Below the pieces are notes generated by a model that did not search any database, had not been told where the DNA came from, and was given only the letters and a program-made list of their open reading frames with translations. From the NCBI GenBank assembly GCA_023137185.1, contig JAGLPS010000006.1:683-64682 (forward strand): 64,000 bases of DNA, given 5' to 3'. Below are positions 7,778 through 54,599 of this stretch, one piece after another. The translations under genes and the position numbers were made by a program. Source of the DNA: Minisyncoccota bacterium (GTDB lineage Bacteria; Patescibacteriota; Minisyncoccia; Phycocordibacterales; JAGLPS01). Each line of letters starts with the position of its first letter. Positions within the stretch are counted from its first letter, which is position 1.

Positions 7778-7902
7778 TATATAAGAGTATTATACCCCTA
7801 ACTAGAGTTAAGTGAAAAAAGTTAAATCTGACTTTGAGAAACACCAACAGATATTGGAATCGCCCTCACCTCTTAACTATGCTAATTTGATAGAATATAT
7901 AT

Positions 7903-8994
7903 ATGCGCGCCGTATTAATATCTTTTTTATCTCTTGTTCTAATGTGCCCTATTTCGGCGCAAGGATTTTACCAAGATACTCAGATAGTATGGCGGGCTGA
8001 AGTAGTAAAGGTCACCGATATAAAGACGATCATCGTACCGGGCACAAATGTCAAAAATCCCGTACAAACATTAACGGCAAAGCTGCTCAACGGGGAACAA
8101 GAGGGGGAAACTGTCATCTTTGAAAATGATTACATTCAACTTGAAAAAGGAGACAAATTTTATCTCAACTACTCAACTACTATCAATGGCCAAGAATTAT
8201 ATTCGGTTCGTGAAGTGGACAGGCGTGGCTCAATAGCGCTCATTGCGGCTATCTTTGTGGCAACAATTCTACTATTTGGAGGTATGCAAGGGTTTCGATC
8301 ATTGCTTTCGCTTGCGGGAAGTCTCTTGGTAATTGTGTATGTGCTAGTGCCAACGTTGGTTAAAGGATACGCCCCTATTCCGATAAGTATCGCTGTCGCG
8401 TCAGCTGTTCTGTTCTGCGCCATTTTTTTTACTCACGGTTTTAATCGCAGGTCAGCTGTTGCGTTTCTCGGAACAATTATCGCCGTTGGAATCACAGGAC
8501 TGCTGGCATACGTTTCAATAGACTCAACAGGGTTGACCGGCTTTGCAAGCGATGAGAGCGTGTATCTAAATTTGAATACTGGCGGGCAATTGGATTTCGT
8601 AGGACTCTTACTCGCGGGAATTATCATCGGCGCTCTTGGAGTTCTGGATGACATCGCAATTACACAAGTCGCAGTTGTGCGCGAACTTTTTGAAGCCGGC
8701 AAACACTTCACAAAATGGGACGTATATAAAAAAGCAATCCGTGTCGGAAGGGAGCACGTAGGAGCGCTTGTAAACACGCTCGTGCTTGCTTACACAGGAG
8801 CGGCGCTTCCCCTTCTTCTCTTATTCTCGCTTTCAGATAGTGGAACACTATCAATTATAAATAGAGAGATATTCGCAACTGAAATTGTCCGCTCACTTGT
8901 CGGAAGCATCGGCCTTGTGCTTGCGGTACCGATTACCACACTGCTTGCCGTATTCTTATTACACAACCATTCTCACAAAGAAATGGGTTCTTAG
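7903..8994 (+). CDS. YibE/F-family integral membrane protein
   Basis: 363 aa; signal/TM N-terminus, soluble domain then ~8 TM with GVLDDIAITQ motif typical of YibE/F. Confidence 0.6.
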   Translation: MRAVLISFLSLVLMCPISAQGFYQDTQIVWRAEVVKVTDIKTIIVPGTNVKNPVQTLTAKLLNGEQEGETVIFENDYIQLEKGDKFYLNYSTTINGQELYSVREVDRRGSIALIAAIFVATILLFGGMQGFRSLLSLAGSLLVIVYVLVPTLVKGYAPIPISIAVASAVLFCAIFFTHGFNRRSAVAFLGTIIAVGITGLLAYVSIDSTGLTGFASDESVYLNLNTGGQLDFVGLLLAGIIIGALGVLDDIAITQVAVVRELFEAGKHFTKWDVYKKAIRVGREHVGALVNTLVLAYTGAALPLLLLFSLSDSGTLSIINREIFATEIVRSLVGSIGLVLAVPITTLLAVFLLHNHSHKEMGS

Positions 8995-14658: not shown

Positions 14659-14844
14659 TTAAGCGGTTTTTGTTTTGGAAGTGTTATCGTAAAATACTTT
14701 TCTTTGGTCTTCGTTTGCGCGCCTTGCCGCCTCTGTAATTATTTTCTTTTTTTCCTTACTTGACGCTTCAAGGAAAAAACGCGAAAACTTGCTTGAGAGT
14801 TTCCCTTTAACTTCTCTCTTGAATATAAAATTAAATAGTTTCAT
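14659..14844 (-). CDS. Small basic hypothetical protein, overlaps the zeta-like gene end by 14 nt
   Basis: 61 aa, lysine-rich; weak. Confidence 0.25.
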   Translation of the reverse strand: MKLFNFIFKREVKGKLSSKFSRFFLEASSKEKKKIITEAARRANEDQRKVFYDNTSKTKTA

Positions 14845-15562
14845 GACTTTTCAGCAACTCTTCTAATTGATTTTTAGTGTATTTGAATTTTATACAGTTG
14901 TCAATTTTATTGATATTTGCCTTAAACTGAATTGTCTGGTGTTTAAAATCTTTTTCCACAAGATAAATTGTAATATTTTTACCAAAATGCTCTTTTAGTT
15001 TGTTTACGACATCCCTTGCTGCGATAAACTGCTCGATGAAAGTCTCTTTTAGTATCCTACGACCATCTTTTTCTTCACGGCGTATGGTAAATTCCCATGC
15101 AATAACCGGATCTTGATAAATATAAAAAATAAAAATAGTTCGGTTTTTATCTAGGGAACGTTGAATATTATCTTTTGCTTTTTCCAAATTTGAAAGAGTA
15201 CCATCAAGAATGAAGTTTTGTTCGTTCGTTAGTACACTATCGTGAATTTTTTCCACAGCAATTGAAACTGCTCCTTGAAATAAATAAGCGTTGCCACCGG
15301 TATAGCCGGGTAATTTGTTTCTAATTTCATCAGCGTCAATACGTGCTACATGACTTTTGTTATCATCCCAGAGATTTTTAAGCAATCCTTTTGAAAATTC
15401 CGTCTTCCCCGCTCCGGGAGAACCCGCCATAAAAACAGATACTGGCGTGGTATCCGGAAATATTTTCTCGGGGTCGGCAAATTCTTGAACGATTTTTTTA
15501 AAGTTTTCCCTCTTTTTTACAAACTTAATTGCTGCTCTTTTAATATCTTCTTCAGATAACAT
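14831..15562 (-). CDS. Zeta-toxin-like P-loop kinase (PF06414-like)
   Basis: 243 aa; Walker A GSPGAGKT, DADEIR, overall zeta/UNAG-kinase-like layout; leaderless start 7 nt after a TAGAAT -10. Confidence 0.55.
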   Translation of the reverse strand: MLSEEDIKRAAIKFVKKRENFKKIVQEFADPEKIFPDTTPVSVFMAGSPGAGKTEFSKGLLKNLWDDNKSHVARIDADEIRNKLPGYTGGNAYLFQGAVSIAVEKIHDSVLTNEQNFILDGTLSNLEKAKDNIQRSLDKNRTIFIFYIYQDPVIAWEFTIRREEKDGRRILKETFIEQFIAARDVVNKLKEHFGKNITIYLVEKDFKHQTIQFKANINKIDNCIKFKYTKNQLEELLKSHETI

Positions 15563-15570
15563 AAACTTAA

Positions 15571-15665
15571 TTCTACACCACTTCCCCGCCTACGCGCACA
15601 CAAGTCTAAATTTTAGGGAATTAAGACAAATTATCGAGAAATTATCGAGGTTCAACCTCGATAAA
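15571..15665 (-). promoter_or_regulatory. Duplicated ~95-nt upstream region (copy 1) with -10-like gtggtgTAGAAT directly before a leaderless ATG, plus palindrome ttatcgag-N4-ttatcgaggttcaacctcgataa
   Basis: Near-identical to 16939-17045, which precedes the NYN gene. Palindromic core atcgaggtt-c-aacctcgat is also present at 47.8 kb and 54.6 kb. Confidence 0.5.
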
Positions 15666-15724
15666 CAGACCGTGAGCTTGTCGAATGTTTCCCTCTAATA
15701 TATATAAAATGATACACTACAATT

Positions 15725-16099
15725 ATGAGTTCAACTGATAAAAAGATTGAAGATTTGGGGTTAAAAATTACTGAATTAACTGAAGCACTCAAAATGATTT
15801 CTGAACGACAAAATTCTCAGTACACTGATATTATGTTAGCTCTTAAAGATATCAAGGACATCCAAAAAGAAATGTCTGAAGAATCCATTCCTCTTTCAGA
15901 TGATAAATTATATGATGAAGCAAAAGAGCTTGTGATTAAATATCAAATAGCTTCAGTTTCATTTCTCCAGCGTATACTACGGATTGGATATTCTCGCGTA
16001 GCTTTTGTTATGGATAAACTAGAAGAGAATGGTGTCATAGGTCATGCAAACGGTTCAGAACCGCACGCGGTTTTGATAAAAAATGAGGACGAAGATTAG
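15725..16099 (+). CDS. Stand-alone FtsK-gamma (winged-helix, KOPS-binding-like) domain protein with coiled-coil N-terminus
   Basis: 124 aa; C-terminal ELVIKYQIASVSFLQRILRIGYSRVAFVMDKLEENGVI matches FtsK gamma domain consensus. Confidence 0.65.
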   Translation: MSSTDKKIEDLGLKITELTEALKMISERQNSQYTDIMLALKDIKDIQKEMSEESIPLSDDKLYDEAKELVIKYQIASVSFLQRILRIGYSRVAFVMDKLEENGVIGHANGSEPHAVLIKNEDED

Positions 16100-16298
16100 T
16101 AAGAATTCTTCAAGGTCGAACCTTGAAATTCTTAACTCCCCCGCTAAACGCTTTGTGGAGGATGGCGGTTCGGAGGGTTTGGAGGTGGGATTTTTAAGTT
16201 ATGCACAAATTTATTGACTTTATTGACTTTTAGTACTCACTCGCTATACTAAGAGCGTCTTTTAGTTTTATCCATAAACTGAAAGGGTTTTACATCCA

Positions 16299-16335
16299 AG
16301 GGCAGCCTTCCTCGCGGAGGGCTGCTTTTTATTTT
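16299..16335. terminator. Hairpin ggcagcc..ggctgc + T-run between the convergent FtsK-gamma and NYN genes
   Basis: stem-loop followed by tttttatttt on the plus strand. Confidence 0.45.
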
Positions 16336-16931
16336 AATTTCTTGCCTTCCGTTTTACTCTTTTCTACTCTGTGCTTCAATTCACGACCCCAAATATCCTC
16401 TGATACTTGTAATATATCAGTATATCCATCCCCTCCCGTTCTTAATTCTTCAGATATATTGTTCTTGGAAGAGTAGATATATACATTTTTTCCGTCTCTC
16501 CTCAAATAAGTTACTAACGCGAGAAAATCTGAATCTCCGGAGAACAAAATAGCTGTTGTGTATTTGTCTTTATGGTGAATAGCATCAATGGTCATTTCCA
16601 CATCCATATTCCCTTTTTCTTCAGTGATGTCTCCGTTATCCGAATGTACAGTGATCCGCTTCAATTCCTTTTTACGAACGTTAATACCAAGACCCTTGCG
16701 AAGATATGTAAAAAACTTGTGTTTCCCGTCCAATAAATAGTCGCGTGTTCCTTCAGCCGGATACGCTGTATAATAAAAAATCTCAATAGCTTGAGCATCA
16801 TTATTCTTTTTGAGAAATTTTTTCAATTTTTCAAAATCAAAAAAATGTCCTCTAACTTTCTGCGCGCTCCAGAGATTTGAAGCGTCAATGAAAACATAAA
16901 CAATCTTTTGTTTTTCTTTATTATTTTTCAT
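16329..16931 (-). CDS. NYN-domain (LabA/PIN-like) putative ribonuclease
   Basis: 200 aa; VYVFIDASNL, DVEMTIDAI, ILFSGDSDF motifs of NYN domain. Confidence 0.7.
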   Translation of the reverse strand: MKNNKEKQKIVYVFIDASNLWSAQKVRGHFFDFEKLKKFLKKNNDAQAIEIFYYTAYPAEGTRDYLLDGKHKFFTYLRKGLGINVRKKELKRITVHSDNGDITEEKGNMDVEMTIDAIHHKDKYTTAILFSGDSDFLALVTYLRRDGKNVYIYSSKNNISEELRTGGDGYTDILQVSEDIWGRELKHRVEKSKTEGKKLK

Positions 16932-16938
16932 AATGCTA

Positions 16939-17045
16939 TTCTACACCACTTCCCCGCCTACGCGCGCACAAGTCTAAATTTTAGGGAATTAAGGCAAATT
17001 ATCGAGAAATTATCGAGGTTCAACCTCGATAATTTCTCGATAAAC
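16939..17045 (-). promoter_or_regulatory. Duplicated upstream region (copy 2) containing a perfect 45-nt palindrome ttatcgagaaattatcgaggtt-c-aacctcgataatttctcgataa (16999-17043) and the leaderless promoter of the NYN gene
   Basis: direct sequence comparison with 15571-15665. Confidence 0.5.
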
Positions 17046-17050
17046 ACAAA

Positions 17051-17089
17051 CACCAAACACCTCAAATACACCATTTGAGGTGTTTGGTG
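17051..17089 (-). terminator. 17-bp perfect hairpin caccaaacacctcaaat-acacc-atttgaggtgtttggtg, terminator of the 17107 gene
   Basis: followed by U-rich tract in minus orientation. Confidence 0.55.
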
Positions 17090-17106
17090 CAAAAGTGGTA
17101 ATTCTG

Positions 17107-17682
17107 CTAGATTTTGGTGTAAAAAACCGATTTCCCGGTGTTCCCGACCTGTTTTATGCGATTTTCTGCTTCAAGAATATCTAAATATCTTACCGCTGTG
17201 GCGCTTGATATTCTAAGTAGTTTTTGAATATCTTTGTTTGTTATTTGAGGCTTTGTCTCAAAAAGAGCTACAACCTTATCTAATTTTTTCCGTCTTCGTT
17301 CTTGAATTTTTGCCCGCGCTTTCACAAGTAATCTTTGAACAATATTCGGATCGGTTTTGTAGATAATTTGTGTTTGAACTTGAGATTGCTGTGGTTGTGG
17401 CTCTGATATTGGCATAGGTTCTTCTGAAACAGAAGAATGTGTGGGAGCAGGTTCTGACACAGTTTGTTCAACCACTTCTTCATCCGCAAGGACTGCTGTT
17501 TCTTGTGGTTGTTCTATTGGTGCTGTGGTTTGAACTTCAGAAATGGTCTCTGGTTGAATTTTCTCAGTTGCTTCTTCAATAGGGTCTGCCGACGGCTCAA
17601 CAATAGGTTCAGTAGCCACAGGTTCTACTGGTACAGTAGTTTCTTCTACTATGTCTTGAGTTTTATTTTCTTCTGGTGGCAT
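17107..17682 (-). CDS. Protein with disordered acidic Pro/Glu-rich N-terminus and C-terminal winged HTH
   Basis: 191 aa; C-terminal KDIQKLLRISSATAVRYLDILEAENRIKQVG is HTH-like; 11 nt after the hsdS stop. Confidence 0.45.
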   Translation of the reverse strand: MPPEENKTQDIVEETTVPVEPVATEPIVEPSADPIEEATEKIQPETISEVQTTAPIEQPQETAVLADEEVVEQTVSEPAPTHSSVSEEPMPISEPQPQQSQVQTQIIYKTDPNIVQRLLVKARAKIQERRRKKLDKVVALFETKPQITNKDIQKLLRISSATAVRYLDILEAENRIKQVGNTGKSVFYTKI

Positions 17683-17693
17683 ATTGTCTTGAA

Positions 17694-19136
17694 CTACAAT
17701 TTTAATTGATTATTTGATGAATTACGATTGTTTTTTTCAATCTCCTCCTCAACTCTCCTTTTCGCTTCTTCTAAAAGCTCTTTGCTTTCTTTTCTCAATT
17801 TATGGCTTTCCTGTATTTTTTCTGCAATCTGTTTTTGAATTTTTGGGTTGATAAGAGGAATTTTAAATTTTTCAAAATCTGATGGTTTTAGATGGGCGAT
17901 TATTGCTCCGCCTGATAATTTTTCAACTTGCGTTTTAGAAATAATGGAATTGAAAATCAGAGACAGGCATTCTTTTTCAAAAGTTTGATATTTGTCTTTT
18001 AGGCTCAATCTTAAAAACGCTCCGCTCAAAATTAGATCAAATTCTTCTTTGACGACATAACTTAAACCGATTGTTCCATCTTTGGTAAATAAAATATCGT
18101 CCCGTTTAGGCTGATAATCATTTTTTAATTCCTGATAAAGCCCTTTTGAAATTTTCTTGCCTGTGTCTTTAACTCCGTTTATTGAAAAATCCGAAACTCT
18201 CCCAAATGACATTCCGTCCTGCTGATATGTTTCGCTCCCAACCTCAACGCCTTTTTTCCAATTCACTATATTTTTAACAAAATTCCAGCCGTTTTTATAA
18301 TTTTCAATCTTTTTAATTATCTCATCATATTTCGGCTGAAAATATTCCGCGTCAAATCTCCCCGCCTCGTCTGTTTCTTTTTTTGTAGTTTGAAATGATA
18401 AAATATGCTCTAGCTTGTAATCCCCTCCTTTGCCAAGGCTTCGGCGGGCAGGCAACAAATCAACCTCTTTCAAAAGCGTTTCTTCGGCTTGTTTGTAAAG
18501 TTGTTTTGATTGGGTTTGTTTTTCGTAAGCGAACTTTACGATTTTTTCTATTTGGAGTTGGAAAGATTGAGGAAGGATTGGGATTTTTAAATCAGTAAAA
18601 TTAAAAACGTTTAATTTGGGTTGTGCGTTACCGCTTATTCTTCTTAATATTTGATTTTGACCATACTTTGAATTTAAAAAAGTTAAAATAAAATATTTTA
18701 TTTCTTCATTGTAATTCTCTAGTTTTATACCGATATTATTTTCAGAGACATTTGCTCTTTTCATTTCATTATCTATTCTTGCAATCAAGCCAATTGTATT
18801 TCCAACTTTTGAGACAACTAAATCGCCTTGTTTTAATTCAGAATTTTTAATCTTATTATTACTATCCTCAGAAATACAAACCATATTTTCTTTTTCTAAA
18901 AAAAATCTTTGTCTTATGTCTTGAACTCTTACAAAATAAACACCTTCATTAAGATATTCTTCACTTTTTAAAGTTGACCCAAAGGGACCTGATACAACCT
19001 CATTTTTTGATAAATAAAAATGTTTTAAATTGTCCAATTTCTCTTCAATCTCCAAATATTCCAGTTTAAAAAACTCCGCGTCAAACCTGCGCGCTTCTTG
19101 AACATCTGATTTTTTGATAATTGAGATTTGTGGCAT
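17694..19136 (-). CDS. hsdS: Type I restriction-modification specificity subunit
   Basis: 480 aa; two target-recognition domains separated by conserved coiled-coil repeats; N-terminus MPQISIIKKSDVQEARRFDAEFF. Confidence 0.85.
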   Translation of the reverse strand: MPQISIIKKSDVQEARRFDAEFFKLEYLEIEEKLDNLKHFYLSKNEVVSGPFGSTLKSEEYLNEGVYFVRVQDIRQRFFLEKENMVCISEDSNNKIKNSELKQGDLVVSKVGNTIGLIARIDNEMKRANVSENNIGIKLENYNEEIKYFILTFLNSKYGQNQILRRISGNAQPKLNVFNFTDLKIPILPQSFQLQIEKIVKFAYEKQTQSKQLYKQAEETLLKEVDLLPARRSLGKGGDYKLEHILSFQTTKKETDEAGRFDAEYFQPKYDEIIKKIENYKNGWNFVKNIVNWKKGVEVGSETYQQDGMSFGRVSDFSINGVKDTGKKISKGLYQELKNDYQPKRDDILFTKDGTIGLSYVVKEEFDLILSGAFLRLSLKDKYQTFEKECLSLIFNSIISKTQVEKLSGGAIIAHLKPSDFEKFKIPLINPKIQKQIAEKIQESHKLRKESKELLEEAKRRVEEEIEKNNRNSSNNQLKL

Positions 19137-19142
19137 ATTATT

Positions 19143-20948: not shown

Positions 20949-20970
20949 GAGTGATTAAATTAAAATTAAA

Positions 20971-21096
20971 TTATCTCCAAAACCCCAACCCATTCTCCCT
21001 CCCCCACTTCTCAAAAGCAAAAGCGATCTCGTCTAAGTCGTCAAACTTGCGCGCTTCTTGAACATCTGATTTTTTTATAATTGAAATTTGAGGCAT
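20971..21096 (-). other. Junction repeat 2 with chimeric 41-aa mini-ORF MPQISIIKKSDVQEARKFDDLDEIAFAFEKWGRENGLGFWR (hsdS N-terminus fused to hsdM C-terminus)
   Basis: Start 2 nt after the stop of the upstream cassette gene. Its stop lies 22 nt before the OLD ATG, reproducing the native hsdM-stop/hsdS-start spacing. Confidence 0.6.
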
Positions 21097-21098
21097 AG

Positions 21099-22879: not shown

Positions 22880-22907
22880 ATTATTTTAAATTAAAAAATT
22901 AATAAAT

Positions 22908-23039
22908 TTATTTCCAAAAACTCAACCCATTCTCCTTCCCCCACTTCTCAAAAGCAAAAGCGATCTCGTCTAAGTCGTCAAACTTGCGTGCTTCATTGAA
23001 TATCTGTTTTTTTATAATTGAAATTTGCGGCATAGCCAT
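22908..23039 (-). other. Junction repeat 1 with chimeric 43-aa mini-ORF MAMPQISIIKKQIFNEARKFDDLDEIAFAFEKWGKENGLSFWK
   Basis: Nucleotide-level copy of the hsdM 3' end joined to the hsdS 5' start; start 1 nt after the stop of the 379-aa gene. Confidence 0.6.
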
Positions 23040-25070: not shown

Positions 25071-25091
25071 ATTTTTATTCTTAAATTTATA

Positions 25092-27119
25092 TTATCTCCA
25101 AAAATTCAACCCATTCTCCTTCCCCCATTTCTCAAAAGCAAAAGCAATATCGTCTAAATCGTGTTTTTGTTTTAGGTGGTTATGCTCATCAAGTTTTCTT
25201 TCTCCATTTTTATCAACTTCGTAAATCTCATCCCCCGAATTATCTTTGCCTGAATTTTCACTCACCGCCATAAATATTTTATAATCATCAACCTTTGGAT
25301 TGATTTTTTCATCCCATTTCTGCACAAACAAGACAGAAGTTTTTGTTCCCGTATGCGGTTTGAAAGTATTGCCGTCAAGCCCGACCACCGCTAAAAGGCG
25401 CGCCCGCTCCATTATAAAATCCCTGATCCTTTCATCGCTCGTATTATTAAACCTTCCCTGCGGCAAGACAATCGCCATTCTTCCGCCCGGTTTTAGAAAA
25501 TCCAGATTCCTTTCAATAAACAAAATGTCTCTTGAAATATTATCAATCTGCTTGTCTTTTTTATAAGCCACTTCATAGCAAGCCGTCATCCTTTTATCTT
25601 TAATATCTCCGGCAAAAGGCGGATTCGCCATTACCAAATCAAAATTAAATTCTTTTGGATTTTTTCTGTCTTTCGCCAAATCCAGCAATCTGTAAAAACC
25701 CTCTAAATAAGTTCTGCTCCATTCCCGGTCTTTCAGTTTTTCTTCCCACCTTGTGTAATCAAGCGAATTCAAATGCAAGACATTTGTCCTGCCGTCGCCC
25801 GCAATCATATTTAAAGTCCGCGCGACACGAACCGATTTTTCGTCAAAATCAATCCCGAAAACTTTTAAGACATATTCCTTTTGCTCTTTGGTCGGTTTCT
25901 GATTTGAAAAATTGCTGAATTGCGCCTTGCCGTTGCCTTTTAATTTTTCCCAAACATTAAAAAGCGTATGTACTGTAAATCCGCAAGACCCGCAAGCCGT
26001 ATCTATCATATACTCGCTTGGCTTTGGATTAAGCATATAAACGCACATATCAATTACATTTCTTGGCGTAAAATACTGTCCTTTTTCTCCTTTGGCGGAT
26101 TTGTTGACCAGATATTCAAACGCTTCGTCAATCACCTGCAGATTGGAATTGAAGAGTTTTACATTCTGCAAAAATCCGACGCAGATTTGCAGATGGTTTT
26201 CATCCGTAATGCGAAGCGGTTCGCCTTTTTCAAAAATTCCCGGCCATTTTTCTTTGGCTTTCTGAAAAAGATTATTGATGACTTCTTTCGTATGATGCGC
26301 ATCGCCGCGACTTCTGAATTCCAGTTGCGTTAATCCTTTTATTTTAACTTTAGCCAAAATTTCTTTATCAGATAAATCAGGATTTTCTTCTCTTAGTTCT
26401 TTAAATTTCCACTCTATTTTTTGCCTATCTTCCGAGCTTTCCATTTCATCATAAAGCTTGATAAAAATCAGTTTAAAAACTTCTTCAAAAACATCCACGC
26501 CGGCATTTGCCAGAACTTCGTCCTCCATTTCCTGAATTAAAGTTTTCAAAGATTTTCTTTCTTCCTGAAGCTTGTCTTTTTGCATCAGTTCCAAATAAGT
26601 AAAAATTTCGTTTTTTACATCGTCTATTGTTTCATTCGCTTTTGGAATATCAGAAAGCGGTTCAAAATAATTAGGATCCAATCGCTCGTAATAATTTATT
26701 TCTGTTCCGTTCGTCCAAACCGCCAAAGGTGCGCCTGTCGCGTTTGTGTAGCTTTTCAACTGGTCTTTCCCATCTTTCGCTTTGTGCTTTTTAATTTCCA
26801 AAACACAATAAACGCTCGTTTTATCTTTTTTATTTAAAATAATAATATCCGCTAGCTTCTTTTCCCTGCCAAAAGAAATAGAAAATTCAACCCTTATCAA
26901 ATCAACGGGATAATTATATTCATTAAGAAGTTTATCAAGCGTTAATTGCCTCACAATCTCCTCCGGCTTTGCTTGAATGTCTTTTTCTCTTTTCAAACAT
27001 TTAATAAAATGCTTTCCTTTTTTCTCAAAAATGCTTTTCTCAACTCTGTCTATGCTTTCCGCGGAAAAAGTCGTCAAATCATATTTCCCGCCTGATTTTA
27101 TAAGTTGCGATAGATTCAT
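25092..27119 (-). CDS. hsdM: Type I restriction-modification DNA methyltransferase subunit
   Basis: 675 aa; N6-adenine MTase motifs DTACGSCGF (motif I) and NPPF (motif IV); HsdM N-terminal domain. Confidence 0.9.
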   Translation of the reverse strand: MNLSQLIKSGGKYDLTTFSAESIDRVEKSIFEKKGKHFIKCLKREKDIQAKPEEIVRQLTLDKLLNEYNYPVDLIRVEFSISFGREKKLADIIILNKKDKTSVYCVLEIKKHKAKDGKDQLKSYTNATGAPLAVWTNGTEINYYERLDPNYFEPLSDIPKANETIDDVKNEIFTYLELMQKDKLQEERKSLKTLIQEMEDEVLANAGVDVFEEVFKLIFIKLYDEMESSEDRQKIEWKFKELREENPDLSDKEILAKVKIKGLTQLEFRSRGDAHHTKEVINNLFQKAKEKWPGIFEKGEPLRITDENHLQICVGFLQNVKLFNSNLQVIDEAFEYLVNKSAKGEKGQYFTPRNVIDMCVYMLNPKPSEYMIDTACGSCGFTVHTLFNVWEKLKGNGKAQFSNFSNQKPTKEQKEYVLKVFGIDFDEKSVRVARTLNMIAGDGRTNVLHLNSLDYTRWEEKLKDREWSRTYLEGFYRLLDLAKDRKNPKEFNFDLVMANPPFAGDIKDKRMTACYEVAYKKDKQIDNISRDILFIERNLDFLKPGGRMAIVLPQGRFNNTSDERIRDFIMERARLLAVVGLDGNTFKPHTGTKTSVLFVQKWDEKINPKVDDYKIFMAVSENSGKDNSGDEIYEVDKNGERKLDEHNHLKQKHDLDDIAFAFEKWGKENGLNFWR

Positions 27120-30885: not shown

Positions 30886-30985
30886 ACACCCCCCAAGCCG
30901 CCCCCTAGGGGGCGGCTTTGGGTTTTTTGCAAGGCCATGAGCTTGTTGAATGGCTCCCCTCTTGGACAAGTTCAGAACTTCAGAA
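30886..30985. repeat. Repeat R-beta copy 1: terminator hairpin (aagccgcccc-ctag-ggggcggctt + T-run) followed by ttgcaaggccatgagcttgttgaatggctcccc...gttcagaact
   Basis: Similar to 32810-32922 and partially 35795-35842. Confidence 0.6.
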
Positions 30986-32739: not shown

Positions 32740-32922
32740 AACAAACGCCGAACATACAATTTGGCTCCGCAATCAAAACATCAACAAACTTTTGAAATTA
32801 TTTTGCCGAACCCCAAAGCCGCCCCTTAAGGGGCGGCTTTGGGGAATTTGTTTTTGCAAGGCCATGAGCTTGTCGAATGGCTCCCCCAACTGGATGCGTT
32901 CAGAACTCTGGATTGGGTAGAA
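32740..32922. repeat. Repeat R-alpha (caacaaacgccgaacatacaatttggctcc) plus R-beta copy 2 (terminator 32812-32856 then ggccatgagcttgtcgaatggctcccccaactggatgcgttcagaactctggattggg)
   Basis: R-alpha recurs at 35917-35947; R-beta at 30886-30985 and 35795-35842. Confidence 0.6.
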
Positions 32923-35794: not shown

Positions 35795-35842
35795 GTTGGC
35801 TCCCCCAACTGGATGAGTTCAGAACTTTGGATTGGGGGAAGA
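35795..35842. repeat. Repeat R-beta copy 3 (ggttggctcccccaactggatgagttcagaactttggattggggg)
   Basis: matches 32868-32918. Confidence 0.55.
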
Positions 35843-35916
35843 TAAAATTGGAAATGAGGAGATTAGATTTTGTTTTATCAAACCTGTTTTGAGCAAACTC
35901 TTCTTGTAACAAACTC

Positions 35917-46862: not shown

Positions 46863-46974
46863 GAAGATTGTTAAACTCGCGTAAAAAAATTTGACAAAAA
46901 AGAATACCTATGCCAATCTTGTGGAAGATAAAAGATAATCTGGCTCTTTAAAACCATTAAAAAGGAGAGTTGCG

Positions 46975-47421
46975 ATGGATACTGTAATTGATAATTTGGA
47001 TACTTTAAATCTGGATTTAAAAGATGAGAAAACGGTAAAATACCTGATTGGACGCTGTAAGTCAGTGGAAGATTTCAAGAAGCTGAATGATCAAACTTTA
47101 CCTGGTTCAGAGGCCAAGAAAAAGGTCAGGAAGGCGTGGGGTGAGTTCATTCTGCCTGAAATTGAAAAACGAATCTCAAATTGCAAGTCAGTGGAGAGCC
47201 TTGAGAGGCTAGAAAGCCAAACTCCATCTGGTTCAGAAGCCCAGAAAAAAATCAGGGAGGCGCGGGAAAAGTTCATTACCATGCAAATCTCAAATTGCAA
47301 GTTGGTGGAGAATTTTAAGAGGCTGATTGATCAAACTTCACCTGGTTCAGAAGCCTGGAGAAAAGTCAGGGAGGCGTGGCAAACATTCGTAAAATCTGAA
47401 ATTCAGGAAACTATCGTTTAG
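46975..47421 (+). CDS. Repeat protein paralog A (three ~37-aa repeats ISNCKSVEDFKKL-DQT-PGSEA-KKVR-AW-EFI-PEIEKR)
   Basis: 148 aa; conserved ~90-nt upstream region with TTGACA and aaaaggagag SD; conserved terminator 47441-47477. Confidence 0.5.
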   Translation: MDTVIDNLDTLNLDLKDEKTVKYLIGRCKSVEDFKKLNDQTLPGSEAKKKVRKAWGEFILPEIEKRISNCKSVESLERLESQTPSGSEAQKKIREAREKFITMQISNCKLVENFKRLIDQTSPGSEAWRKVREAWQTFVKSEIQETIV

Positions 47422-47523
47422 ACTCTTAATTAAAACTTGAAAGCGGGCAAGGATGTAATTCTGCCCGCTTTTTTTGACGAAAAGATTTGATGAAAAGACC
47501 TCTCCCCACCTAAATCTTTCCCA

Positions 47524-47571
47524 TCCTTTCTTTCTCTAACCTAATCTCTAATTCGCGCGAATTAGAGATTA
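47524..47571. repeat. Near-perfect 48-nt palindrome ctaatctctaattcgcgcgaattagagattag with flanks, tail of the paralog cassette (copy also at 54468-54505)
   Basis: seen directly. Confidence 0.6.
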
Positions 47572-47699
47572 GATTAGAGAGTTGCTATCAATGTTTTTTG
47601 TTATTGGAAGCGGCCAGAATACCCCGTCCGCTTGCGGCGGGGATGAATGGTCGCGCAGTAATCTGGGCGAGCGAAGCTCGCTCCTATCTAACAAAGTTT

Positions 47700-47760: not shown

Positions 47761-47798
47761 TTATATCGAGGTTTATATCGAGGTTGAACCTCGATAAT
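47761..47798. repeat. P2 palindrome family copy c (tatatcgaggtt x2 - g - aacctcgata)
   Basis: core atcgaggtt-N-aacctcgat shared with 15630-15664, 16999-17043 and 54553-54599. Confidence 0.55.
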
Positions 47799-52980: not shown

Positions 52981-53055
52981 GTTAAAAATTTGACAAAAAG
53001 GATATCTATGCTATTTTTGTGGAAGATAAATAATAATCAAGTCCTTTAAAAACCA

Positions 53056-53540
53056 TTGAAAAGGAGAGTCGCGATGGATACTGTAATTGGTAATTTGGAT
53101 ACTTTGAATCTGGATTTAGAAGATGAGAAAACGATAAAATACCTGATTGGACGTTGTAAGTCAGAGGAGGATTTTAGGAGACTGGATGGGCAAACTCCGT
53201 CTGGTTCAGAAGCCGAGAAAAAAGTCAGGGAGGCGTGGGATGAGTTCATTCTGCCTGAAATTGAGGAGCGAATCTCAAATTGTAAGTCAGTAGAGGATTT
53301 CAAGGAGCTAGATAGACAAACTCCATCTGGTTTAGAAGCTGAGAGAAAAGTAAGGGAGGCAAGGGAAAAGTTCTTTCTGCTTGAAATTGAAAACTGCTTG
53401 AACTTGAAAAGAAAATCTCAAATTGCAAGTCAGTGGAGGACTTTGAGAGGCTAGAAAGCCAAACTCCGCTTAATCCAGAAGCCAGGAAAAAGGTCAGGGA
53501 GGCGTGGCAAGCATTCGTAAAATCTGAAATTCAGAAAACC
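53056..53540 (+). pseudogene. Repeat protein paralog B, disrupted by a 17-nt insertion/duplication (ctgcttgaacttgaaaa) near 53394 causing a frameshift
   Basis: ORF 53056-53454 terminates early; the downstream frame encodes the conserved C-terminus ...KISNCKSVEDFERLESQTPLNPEARKKVREAWQAFVKSEIQKTIV. Confidence 0.5.
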
Positions 53541-53670
53541 ATCGTTTAGACTCTTAATTAAAACTCAAAAGCGGGCAAGGATATAATCCTGCCCGCTTTT
53601 TATAATCAGAAAACTTTGCAGGTCAAGACAAGAAAGCACTTCGTTTTGGACACTGAGTGTCCAAAAACCC

Positions 53671-53720: not shown

Positions 53721-53832
53721 GCGTAATTGATTTCATAAGAAATGCTTAATTGAAACACAATTTAACTAAATATAAATTGAAATTGAACTCACGGAAAAAA
53801 GGTTTGACAAAAAGGATATCTATGCTATTTTT

Positions 53833-54351
53833 GTGGAAGATAAAGAACACTCAAGCTCTTTAAAACTACTAAAAAGGAGAGTCGCGATGGATATTGTAGT
53901 TGGGAATTTGGATACTTTGAATCTGGATTTAAAAGATGAGAAAACGATAAAATACCTGATTGGGCGTTGCAAGTCAGTAGAAGATTTCAAGAGGCTGGAT
54001 AGTCAAATTCCGCTTTGGTCAGAAGCCAGAAAAAAAGTCAGGGAGGCGCGGGATGAGTTTGTTAGCAAATTGCCTGAAATTGAAGAACGAATCTCAAATT
54101 GCAAGTCAGTGGAGGACTTTGAGAGACTAGAAAGCCAAACTCAATTTGGTTCAGAAGCTGAGAAAAAGGTCAGGGAGGCGTGGAATAAGTTCATTCTGCC
54201 TGAAATTGAAAAGAAAATCTTAAATTGCAAGTCAGTGGAAGATTTCAGGAGGCTGGATAGCCAAACTCCACTTTGGTTAGAAGCTTGGAGAAAAGTCAGG
54301 GAGGCGTGGCGAACATTCGTAAAATCTGAAATTCAGAAAACCATCGTTTAG
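53833..54351 (+). CDS. Repeat protein paralog C (four repeats)
   Basis: 172 aa; the same promoter/RBS, terminator (54371-54407) and palindromic tail as paralog A. Confidence 0.5.
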   Translation: MEDKEHSSSLKLLKRRVAMDIVVGNLDTLNLDLKDEKTIKYLIGRCKSVEDFKRLDSQIPLWSEARKKVREARDEFVSKLPEIEERISNCKSVEDFERLESQTQFGSEAEKKVREAWNKFILPEIEKKILNCKSVEDFRRLDSQTPLWLEAWRKVREAWRTFVKSEIQKTIV

Positions 54352-54552
54352 ACTCTTAACTAAAACTTGAAAGCGGGCAAGGATGTAATCCTGCCCGCTT
54401 TTTTTTGACGAAAAGATTTGATGAAAAGACCTCTCCGTCCAAATCTTTTCTACCCTTTCTTTCTCTAATCTCTAATTCGCGCGAATAGGAGAATAGATTA
54501 GAGAGTTGCTATCAATGTTTTTTTGTTGTTAGTTAAGTGTTATAAGTTTTTT

Positions 54553-54599
54553 TATTATCGAGTATTATCGAGGTTCAACCTCGATAATACTCGATAATA
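54553..54599. repeat. P2 palindrome family copy d (47-nt near-perfect palindrome tattatcgagtattatcgaggtt-c-aacctcgataatactcgataata)
   Basis: seen directly, between convergent genes. Confidence 0.55.

Follow-up and report, generated by a model that had tools for sequence, protein, structure and literature searches.

We analysed a window of 64,000 nucleotides (nt) from a Minisyncoccota bacterium of the Patescibacteria (assembly GCA_023137185.1, contig JAGLPS010000006.1, positions 683 to 64,682), which encodes rpoC, dnaG, rpoD, hisS and uppP, and in which a gene for a stand-alone FtsK gamma domain lies between a gene for a zeta-toxin-like P-loop kinase and a gene for an NYN-type nuclease. The zeta-like and NYN genes are each preceded by a copy of the same 95-nt module, the distal end of which carries a palindrome. 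We consider it fairly likely that this duplicated module combines a promoter with an array of repetitive extragenic palindromic (REP)-type half-sites, the partner of which resembles the REP-associated tyrosine transposases (RAYTs), and that it was born by recombination. Judged from its distribution, the palindrome is a copy of a repeat spread across the genome and the phylum, and not a private switch of the two genes.

The duplicated module and the dispersal of its palindrome

On the minus strand, copy 1 (15570..15664) stands directly 5' of the zeta-like gene and copy 2 (16938..17032) directly 5' of the NYN gene. The two 95-nt direct repeats are 1368 nt apart, show 98% identity and differ by two A/G changes (15598/16966 and 15626/16994); in the minus-strand reading, both finish with TAGAAT shortly 5' of an ATG. 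The original prediction, made from the sequence alone, had described near-identical upstream regions of the two genes and a single module common to both, and it was right on each count; its three domain calls were likewise confirmed in Pfam (Zeta_toxin, 1.3e-35; FtsK_gamma, 5.4e-22; NYN, 2.5e-25). The zeta/gamma-only/NYN arrangement is not an assembly artefact, since it is also present in four further independent metagenome assemblies besides the window's own metagenome-assembled genome (MAG).

Each copy can be divided into a proximal putative promoter segment, 61 nt in copy 1 (15570-15630), and a distal array of half-sites. The array of copy 1 (15631..15664) contains three half-sites TTATCGAG(G), with an inner 23-nt palindrome at 15642-15664 and a predicted hairpin of -13.4 kcal/mol; these are three of the four half-sites of copy 2 (15631, 15642, 15664-). 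The four half-sites of copy 2 form the perfect 45-nt palindrome that had been predicted there (16999..17043), with 22-nt arms that are 100% complementary and 1 nt between them (-30.4 kcal/mol, z -9.2), and this palindrome continues past the end of the repeat. Two further arrays lie between convergent genes at distant sites, as had also been noticed from the sequence. One has three half-sites (47763..47797, between 46975-47421+ and uppP, 47869-48696-), and the other, 3' of rpoD, has four half-sites in a perfect palindrome with the spacer TA, not AAA (54555..54597, between 53833-54351+ and rpoD, 54653-55876-; -32.1 kcal/mol). Overall, the core ATCGAGGTTCAACCTCGAT was found at four sites in the window (15644, 17012, 47777 and 54567), compared with 0 in 100 shuffles, and the half-site TTATCGAG occurred 13 times versus 2.0 expected. 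A search of the 95-nt module against Rfam, at gathering and at permissive thresholds, returned no known RNA family.

When one genome per species was scanned with the query TTATCGAGGTTNAACCTCGATAA, the exact 23-mer TTATCGAGGTT-N-AACCTCGATAA was found at 47 loci in 27 assemblies, nearly all from Patescibacteria (Parcubacteria, Wolfebacteria, Azambacteria, Paceibacterota, Minisyncoccia and MAGs labelled Saccharibacteria). Several genomes harbor more than one copy, and the flanks are unrelated between loci. The centre of the palindrome is fixed as GTTSAAC, and the palindrome often has additional half-sites, either on one side or on both (L002, L009, L038, L042, L043). As many as 43 of the 61 sites are intergenic, including 22 between tandem, 7 between divergent and 7 between convergent genes, with no bias toward gene starts or gene ends; at locus L026, the site follows a tRNA gene by 12 nt. 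After the 61 sites were oriented by their central base, the flanks proved symmetric, with A enriched 5' and T enriched 3' of the palindrome (aA[palindrome]Ttt).

The adjacent genes include those for ClpP, IleRS, Lys/Asp-RS, alanine racemase (alr), RNase Y, pilins, TatD, Fpg, PspC and DivIC, and no common theme emerged when a shared regulon (such as that of HrcA, LexA or NrdR) was sought among 30 annotated palindrome-adjacent genes of other genomes. None of the four candidate partner proteins of the window was found again beside the palindrome, the sole match being the C-terminus of a full-length FtsK. No copy was detected in a scan of viral contigs, and a literature search with the palindrome sequence produced chance primer or genome matches only. 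The original prediction had taken the palindrome for a shared operator through which the zeta-like and NYN genes are co-regulated, a claim that did not survive the finding of 47 loci in 27 assemblies beside unrelated genes. A private operator of two toxin-like genes is ruled against by these loci, by their unrelated neighbours, by the equal representation of gene starts and ends and by the link to a RAYT-like enzyme described below. A dedicated transcription-factor operator confined to the promoters of a regulon was also rejected, as the sites occur 3' of genes, between convergent genes, after a tRNA gene and inside an open reading frame (ORF) as well.

A RAYT-like enzyme surrounded by the palindrome

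At four of the 47 loci (L038, L006, L018 and L004), the palindrome surrounds a gene for an IS200-like Y1_Tnp protein of ~230 amino acids (aa), with one copy just upstream, at least one just downstream and one in frame inside the gene, where it occupies the same codon position across those loci (peptide HYRGSTSI). The window's own genome carries such a RAYT-like gene on another contig (L058 767-1471), with palindromes at 632 and 689 upstream, at 1255 inside, where it is extended to a 37-nt perfect palindrome, and at 1529 and 1594 downstream. The in-frame copies (L058 1248-1284; L060 3468-3496; L038 937-959) encode the peptide Y-x-x-S-T-x-I.

Other homologues are accompanied by other repeats. 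The gene of L060 has the palindrome CTATGGGAGTTGAACTCCCATAG upstream, inside and downstream, that of L061 is flanked by TATCGATTTCGTATATCGATATACGAAATCGATA, and one gene of L062 is flanked by TTTACGAC-TTGCGAT-GTCGTAAA, so that at least four different flanking palindromes are associated with RAYT-like homologues. Flanking by the repeat on both sides was observed in L038, L006, L018, L004, L058/L059, L060, L061 and the second gene of L062, while the first RAYT-like gene of L062 had no flanking palindrome of at least 8 bp. At the DNA level, the internal copy matches the flanking ones in two dialects, TATCGAGG and TATGGGAG, and in these two only; no such match was seen in L061 and L062. As the homologues carry other flanking palindromes and the internal copy of L060 matches its own, the palindrome would be a REP-type repeat with a RAYT-like partner, and the enzyme, flanked by the palindrome and containing it, is apparently its cognate.

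The RAYT-like family comprises 7864 proteins at E<=1e-10, and those among the matches listed are 61-90% identical. The internal heptapeptide Y-x-x-S-T-x-I was present in 113 close homologues, in which residue pairs 2/6 and 3/5 fit reverse-complement codons in 103/113 and 105/113 cases, respectively, versus 13% by chance; the covarying pairs were G-S, R-S, G-P and K-L. This covariation of the residues encoded by the two arms argues that the hairpin inside the gene has been kept through compensatory changes. The protein matches Pfam Y1_Tnp at 1.1e-8, and residues H88 and H90 (the HUH motif) and Y148-x-H150-x-N152-P153 are invariant in 35 homologues. A phmmer comparison with solved Y1 transposases returned no match. 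The top 28 Foldseek matches of its predicted fold, a model of moderate quality (predicted local distance difference test score, pLDDT, 62), were the TnpA proteins of IS608, ISDra2, IS200 and Sulfolobus tokodaii (probability 1.0, template-modelling score 0.5-0.64 on the target).

The system shares several properties with the REP/RAYT systems of proteobacteria (TnpA-REP of Escherichia coli and REPIN-RAYT of Pseudomonas; PMC3116915, PMC3479197, PMC5581495), namely a short, multi-copy and mostly extragenic palindrome, a Y1/HUH transposase homologue flanked by copies of it, a palindrome that differs between enzyme lineages, and a strongly conserved enzyme, as expected of a domesticated gene. However, it also departs from them: here the palindrome has perfectly matched arms around a constant GTTSAAC centre, is prolonged by half-sites in tandem, lacks a tag tetranucleotide, lies in frame inside the enzyme's own ORF and is common to many species as the same 23-mer, while the host has a genome of ~1 Mb and the protein scores below the NCBIfam RAYT cut-off. 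Compared with TnpA of the IS200/IS605 family (IS608, ISDra2), which provides the best structural matches and with which the protein shares the HUH motif, the catalytic tyrosine and, by analogy, perhaps the recognition of hairpins, the RAYT-like gene lies outside any bounded insertion sequence, is not accompanied by tnpB and encodes ~230 aa versus ~130-150 aa, and its hairpins are dispersed without the gene. Together, the repeat and the enzyme may constitute a Patescibacteria-wide REP/RAYT-like system. We found nothing describing such a system in the literature on RAYT/REPIN together with Patescibacteria, and it has apparently not yet been described.

The putative promoter segment and the genes of the locus

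The -10-like TAGAAT of each copy is a candidate leaderless promoter on the minus strand, at 15570..15575, 7 nt before the zeta-like ATG, and at 16938..16943, 6 nt before the NYN ATG. The original prediction had given 7 nt for both genes, which stands for the zeta-like gene and has to be corrected for the NYN gene, and its description of TAGAAT close to an ATG without a Shine-Dalgarno sequence agrees with our data: no such sequence was found before either ATG. The geometry is enriched in the window and recurs in a relative. TANNNT ends exactly 6 nt before the start codon in 10 of the 52 window genes, compared with a mean per offset of 1.6 far upstream and 3.2 within 20 nt of starts. TAGAAT is likewise present 8 nt before hisS and 6 nt before the gene at 7903, and TACACT lies 6 nt before the ATG of the gamma-only gene. 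In L065, the closest relative found (79% identical), the zeta orthologue has the order TAAAAT, 6 nt, ATG, although DNA similarity begins only 21 nt upstream of that ATG. Leaderless promoters are abundant in Actinobacteria, Deinococcus and archaea, and the module resembles them in its TANNNT 6-7 nt from the start, in lacking a Shine-Dalgarno sequence and in having no obvious -35 element; it differs from them in that a leadered alternative lies inside the same module and in that the geometry is read from the letters of the DNA.

Several observations weigh against a leaderless start. A consensus scan proposed the pair TCGATA, 16 nt, TAAAAT on the minus strand (16978..17005; the same pair in copy 1 at 15610-15637), the -35 element of which lies in the outer half-site and which would give a leader of ~40 nt; no -35 element was found at 16-18 nt from TAGAAT; and the enrichment of the TANNNT spacing is modest once local AT-richness is allowed for, with peaks also at spacings 1 and 11. 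On balance, transcription probably starts leaderless from TAGAAT.

The proximal 60 nt are devoid of RNA structure (z +1.1) and have no match at any other palindrome locus. When metagenomes were scanned with the promoter half GCGGGGAAGTGGTGTAGAAT, a single match came back, on an unrelated high-GC contig, and on this ground the segment appears private to this lineage. On that contig (L048 3259-3284), the exact 20-mer GCGGGGAAGTGGTGTAGAAT again precedes an ATG by 6 nt, that of a Ser/Thr kinase-like ORF, which is probably due to chance.

The zeta-like kinase (243 aa; 14831..15562, minus strand; PF06414 at 1.3e-35 over residues 34-200) belongs to a core Patescibacteria family. Its 3895 homologues have a uniform length of ~238 aa and are 50-60% identical across Kaiserbacteria, Wolfebacteria and other groups and candidate phyla, a distribution that is neither patchy nor mobile-element-like. 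In distant genomes, the gene is flanked by mreB-mreC-PBP2-greA and lysS-mraZ-rsmH, or elsewhere lies after a NUDIX gene. A conserved 61-aa ORF (14659..14844, minus strand), overlooked in the original prediction, overlaps its stop codon by 14 nt; an ORF of 58-65 aa with the motif FSRFFL.AS..EKKKI..EAARRAN.DQRK covers the kinase stop in 4/4 genomes examined, and its product may neutralise, regulate or assist the kinase. Directly upstream of the zeta-like gene are the promoter/REP module and then a divergent gene, with no antitoxin gene, and no sequence-level match to solved zeta toxins was detected.

The gene pair is similar to epsilon/zeta (PezAT) systems in its Zeta_toxin P-loop kinase with a Walker A motif and an ID.D..R segment, and in having a small partner in the same operon. 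It differs in that the partner is downstream, overlaps the kinase gene and is unrelated to epsilon/PezA, and in that the family is core, vertically conserved in Patescibacteria and placed in housekeeping neighbourhoods. The view of the two genes as toxin-like and without obvious antitoxins was not upheld, given that the zeta-like gene is a core gene with 3895 homologues and a conserved downstream partner. The original prediction had named non-toxic housekeeping homologues as an outcome contrary to its toxin view, and housekeeping neighbourhoods were indeed found, for the zeta-like gene only. The label 'toxin' fits the zeta-like gene poorly and the NYN gene loosely.

The NYN/LabA-like nuclease (200 aa; 16329..16931, minus strand; PF01936 at 2.5e-25) is a stand-alone protein encoded by an accessory gene. 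Its acidic segments FIDASN, NMDVEMTIDA and SGDSDF align with VPA0982 (PDB 2qip), and the PADLOC models NYN and HEC-09 matched it at 5.8e-11 and 7.6e-7, respectively. The family is sparse, with 21 cluster representatives at E<=1e-30, and in L065 the corresponding slot is occupied by a different NYN gene (28% identity) in three copies.

The gamma-only protein (124 aa; 15725..16099, plus strand) has a clear gamma-domain winged helix, as in FtsK, at residues 59-118 only (1.6e-7 to the FtsK gamma of Pseudomonas aeruginosa), and lacks the alpha/beta translocase motor of FtsK/SpoIIIE. That such a protein is unusual, as had been suggested, is confirmed by its rarity: 13 clusters of homologues were found (111-207 aa). 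Their genes lie upstream of restriction or defence genes or beside a primase gene and a Replic_Relax gene; such settings in defence islands and plasmid-like contexts distinguish them from FtsK gamma and from XafT. In the window protein, what we take to be the residues N, R and E that read the FtsK orienting polar sequences (KOPS) are replaced by S, F and D, the change from E to D being conservative. Just past its stop codon is a small palindrome, TTCAAGGTCGAACCTTGAA (16108..16128). A candidate small RNA of ~78 nt (16223..16335, plus strand; minimum free energy -32.2 kcal/mol, z -6.0) is convergent with the NYN 3' end and displays a near-consensus promoter TTGACT-16-TATACT (16223-16250), two hairpins and a strong terminator (16298-16329 plus a T-run). 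A T>C single-nucleotide polymorphism (SNP) at 16308 in another assembly turns one of its G.U pairs into G-C, and no Rfam match was obtained for it at gathering or permissive thresholds. The motif CC(G/A)TGAGCTTGT(C/T)GAATG..TCCC upstream of the gamma-only gene (15669-15694) is also found in the intergenic positions 30931-30959 and 32858-32886, which extend into a longer shared segment that is also at 35797-35846.

Other repeats were observed elsewhere in the window. A second palindrome family, TTGGAAGC-NNN-GCTTCCAA, has 10 sites versus 0 expected (4546, 5525, 10141, 37748, 41802, 41872, 46766, 46838, 52949 and 53685), often with tandem half-sites and in most cases with GTGGTGTAAT behind them, a box that recurs as GTGGTGTAGAAT at the end of the 95-nt repeat; in L029, a palindrome related to this family adjoins the first family. 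The box GTGGTGTA(G)AAT, enriched in this genome (10 sites versus 0.4 expected) and not at other Patescibacteria loci, was rejected as a general promoter element, being mostly a member of the second palindrome family and often facing no gene. A third palindromic repeat, CTAATCTCTAATTCGCGCGAATTAGAGATTAG followed by GAGAGTTGCTATCAATGTTTTTT (47541-47599 and 54465-54523), precedes the REP arrays of 47763 and 54555 by 60-200 nt. Three small ORFs that are paralogues of one another (148, 132 and 172 aa, with no Pfam match; 46886-47490, 52984-53618 and 53798-54420) have internal periodic repeats of 126-143 nt and a common TTGACA-type promoter region. Upstream of the gene at 7903, TAGAATATATATATG (7888-7905) presumably resembles the dif core of Bacillus subtilis (CCTAGAATATATATTATG).

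Probable recombination at the defence-island edge and the competing explanations

Downstream of 17.7 kb, the window harbors a defence island with hsdS/hsdM (MAD2-like, type I), an OLD/AriA-like ATPase, Thoeris ThsA/ThsB, DUF4145, RhuM and AAA_14 genes. As judged from gene content, the zeta-like gene and its partner would be a core operon that borders this variable island, with the NYN and gamma-only genes as its outermost accessory cargo. Between hsdM (25092-27119) and hsdS (17694-19136) are three blocks of defence cargo: DUF4145 with a 379-aa gene, a 103-aa gene with Thoeris ThsB/ThsA, and the OLD/AriA-like gene. They are parted by two chimeric junctions of ~135 nt in which the first ~70 nt of hsdS run directly into the last ~75 nt of hsdM and which each encode a 41-aa hybrid ORF (hsd segments at 19079-19137, 20964-21097, 22901-23034 and 25085-25178). 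The arrangement resembles a stack of 'hsdM-cargo-hsdS' units, or cassettes that use hsd sequences as homology arms. This is reminiscent of defence genes inside type I restriction-modification loci, such as prrC between hsd genes, in that the zeta/gamma-only/NYN cassette lies at the rim of an hsdM...hsdS locus, which contains OLD/AriA-like and Thoeris genes and in which duplicated junctions flank the cargo blocks; the duplicated segment at the zeta-like and NYN genes differs in being a promoter with a REP array and not an hsd gene junction.

In L065 (1898-5653 and 6248-6782), 917-nt NYN units (gene plus upstream region) are arranged in tandem around the zeta-like gene with 100% identity, and ~270 nt upstream of zeta are nearly identical to the region upstream of its NYN genes; this shared upstream module is free of the REP palindrome, and no known RNA family was found in it with Rfam. 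The same region of L065 has a tRNA gene with three repeated copies of its 3' end behind it, ~157 nt apart, as would be expected of an integration hot spot. In run SRR13892604, position 16994, one of the two at which the copies differ, has the base of the other copy. This variant, the tandem units of L065 and the hsd chimeric junctions together support ongoing recombination. In L053, eight SNPs cluster in a 100-nt stretch (17256-17353) inside the winged helix-turn-helix (wHTH) gene and the rest of 11 kb differs at only five positions, which suggests a recombination tract. Direct repeats around 1273 nt of cargo are the expected product of a single crossover or unequal exchange, and duplication by recombination, with the copies kept uniform by gene conversion, is the most likely origin of the two modules.

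Taken together, the data would be best explained as follows. The distal 34-45 nt would be an array of REP-type half-sites, from a repeat family of which this genome has at least one other, acting here as a passive transcription barrier and a recombination-prone repeat and not as a gene-specific operator; the proximal ~60 nt would be the promoter, with the zeta-like operon and the NYN gene expressed leaderless from identical promoters. The NYN and gamma-only genes would have been inserted beside the core zeta-like operon at the edge of the defence island, the promoter/REP module being duplicated by recombination during that insertion and gene conversion holding its copies near-identical. The barrier or insulator role is plausible for the array of copy 2, itself a strong hairpin behind the terminator of the wHTH gene 17107-17682 (17050..17090, minus strand; a 19-bp hairpin with a T-rich tail, -30.3 kcal/mol). 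The array of copy 1, between divergent genes, needs no such role and was probably carried along by the duplication.

Some findings count against the REP-type interpretation. No GTAG/CGTC tetranucleotide or other tag accompanies the hairpin in the 61 oriented sites, four REP arrays per 64 kb is a low density for a REP family, and the sole NCBIfam match of the enzyme, NF047646 (REP_Tyr_transpos), scores 36-38 bits, below the cut-off of 80. In addition, the spacing of the half-sites (10-11 bp), with one-sided extra copies that a hairpin does not need, and the overlap of the outer half-site with the -35-like TCGATA would also suit a DNA-binding repressor, and the sharing of a common upstream module by NYN and zeta genes in two lineages, the window's and L065, hints at real co-regulation. 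The nested palindrome could accordingly be read as the operator of a dimeric or tetrameric regulator that co-represses both genes, for which the adjoining genes offer two DNA-binding candidates, the gamma-only winged-helix protein and the wHTH protein (17107-17682), beside a domesticated RAYT-like protein; that gamma-only homologues lie directly upstream of restriction and defence genes is in keeping with such a role. We regard this as unlikely: the same palindrome is found 3' of rpoD and uppP, after a tRNA gene, inside an ORF and beside ~30 unrelated genes, the window's candidate regulators do not accompany it at other loci, it varies together with the RAYT-like gene while its pairing is kept, and the shared module of L065 lacks it. 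The two views would meet if the RAYT-like protein were a domesticated hairpin- or duplex-binding factor.

The direct repeats flanking the 1368-bp unit, which comprises one repeat copy, the gamma-only gene, the candidate small RNA and the NYN gene, could also mark a mobile cassette that is excised as a circle and re-integrated at the repeat, either by homologous recombination or by a host Xer-type recombinase that the gamma protein of the cassette would activate. The repeat ends exactly at GTGGTGTAGAA, 6 nt and TTATGTTATCT, and by eye the sequence on the zeta side is similar to what we take to be an 11-6-11 Xer (dif) site; the putative centres differ, however (TTAAGT versus TAGCA/T), and that on the NYN side is only 5 nt. 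Logan contig L056 looks like the product of a circle or tandem junction in its length (1398 nt = 1368 + 30), in its identical ends (first and last 30 nt) and in its hybrid repeat, with G at 16966 and A at 16994. Logan uses k = 31, and since a k=31 graph of copy 2 with A at 16994 and a clipped palindrome tip explains this contig equally well, it is ambiguous and not proof of a circle. Gamma-only homologues do lie beside primase and Replic_Relax genes and defence cargo, the gamma domain of FtsK alone activates XerD (PMC3130261), and mobile elements and phages can carry their own Xer activator, XafT (PMC6744903). But neither the unit nor its vicinity contains a recombinase gene, the longer assemblies all have the unit integrated, and no empty-site allele was detected among contigs carrying zeta-like or gamma-only proteins. 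We therefore give the mobile cassette only a small probability, and its minimal form, in which the gamma protein would activate a host Xer-type recombinase in trans at a dif-like sequence overlapping the leaderless promoter, seems to us highly improbable.

Plain bidirectional intrinsic terminators, made identical by recent local copying, would account for the strong hairpins (-30 kcal/mol), their A-rich 5' and T-rich 3' flanks, the many sites a few nt after a stop codon or tRNA and the consensus scan that calls copy 2 a terminator. An identical 23-mer across classes of the phylum is not a property of terminators, though; seven sites, including copy 1, lie between divergent genes, one copy is inside the RAYT-like ORF, and a separate and better terminator already stands behind the upstream gene (17050-17090), which leaves this explanation quite improbable. 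A promoter joined to a REP-type array with a RAYT-like partner remains the reading that we prefer.

To our knowledge, almost nothing is known about the promoters, terminators and mobile DNA of the tiny, streamlined Patescibacteria genomes. Our analyses point to a REP-type family and a RAYT-like partner spread through the phylum, with more than 7800 homologues of the enzyme, and the hairpin inside the enzyme's reading frame, with its covarying arms, would be a built-in record of enzyme-repeat co-evolution that is unusual for REP systems. The sequence evidence for leaderless promoters in Patescibacteria matters for gene calling and for expression tools, and the blocks flanked by duplicated junctions of 95-135 nt may illustrate how defence islands accumulate cargo. 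If the mobile cassette were true, defence cargo could move in and out next to a core gene while encoding no recombinase itself. More generally, neither is a perfect palindrome before 'toxin' genes necessarily their operator, nor is every protein with a Zeta_toxin domain necessarily a toxin.

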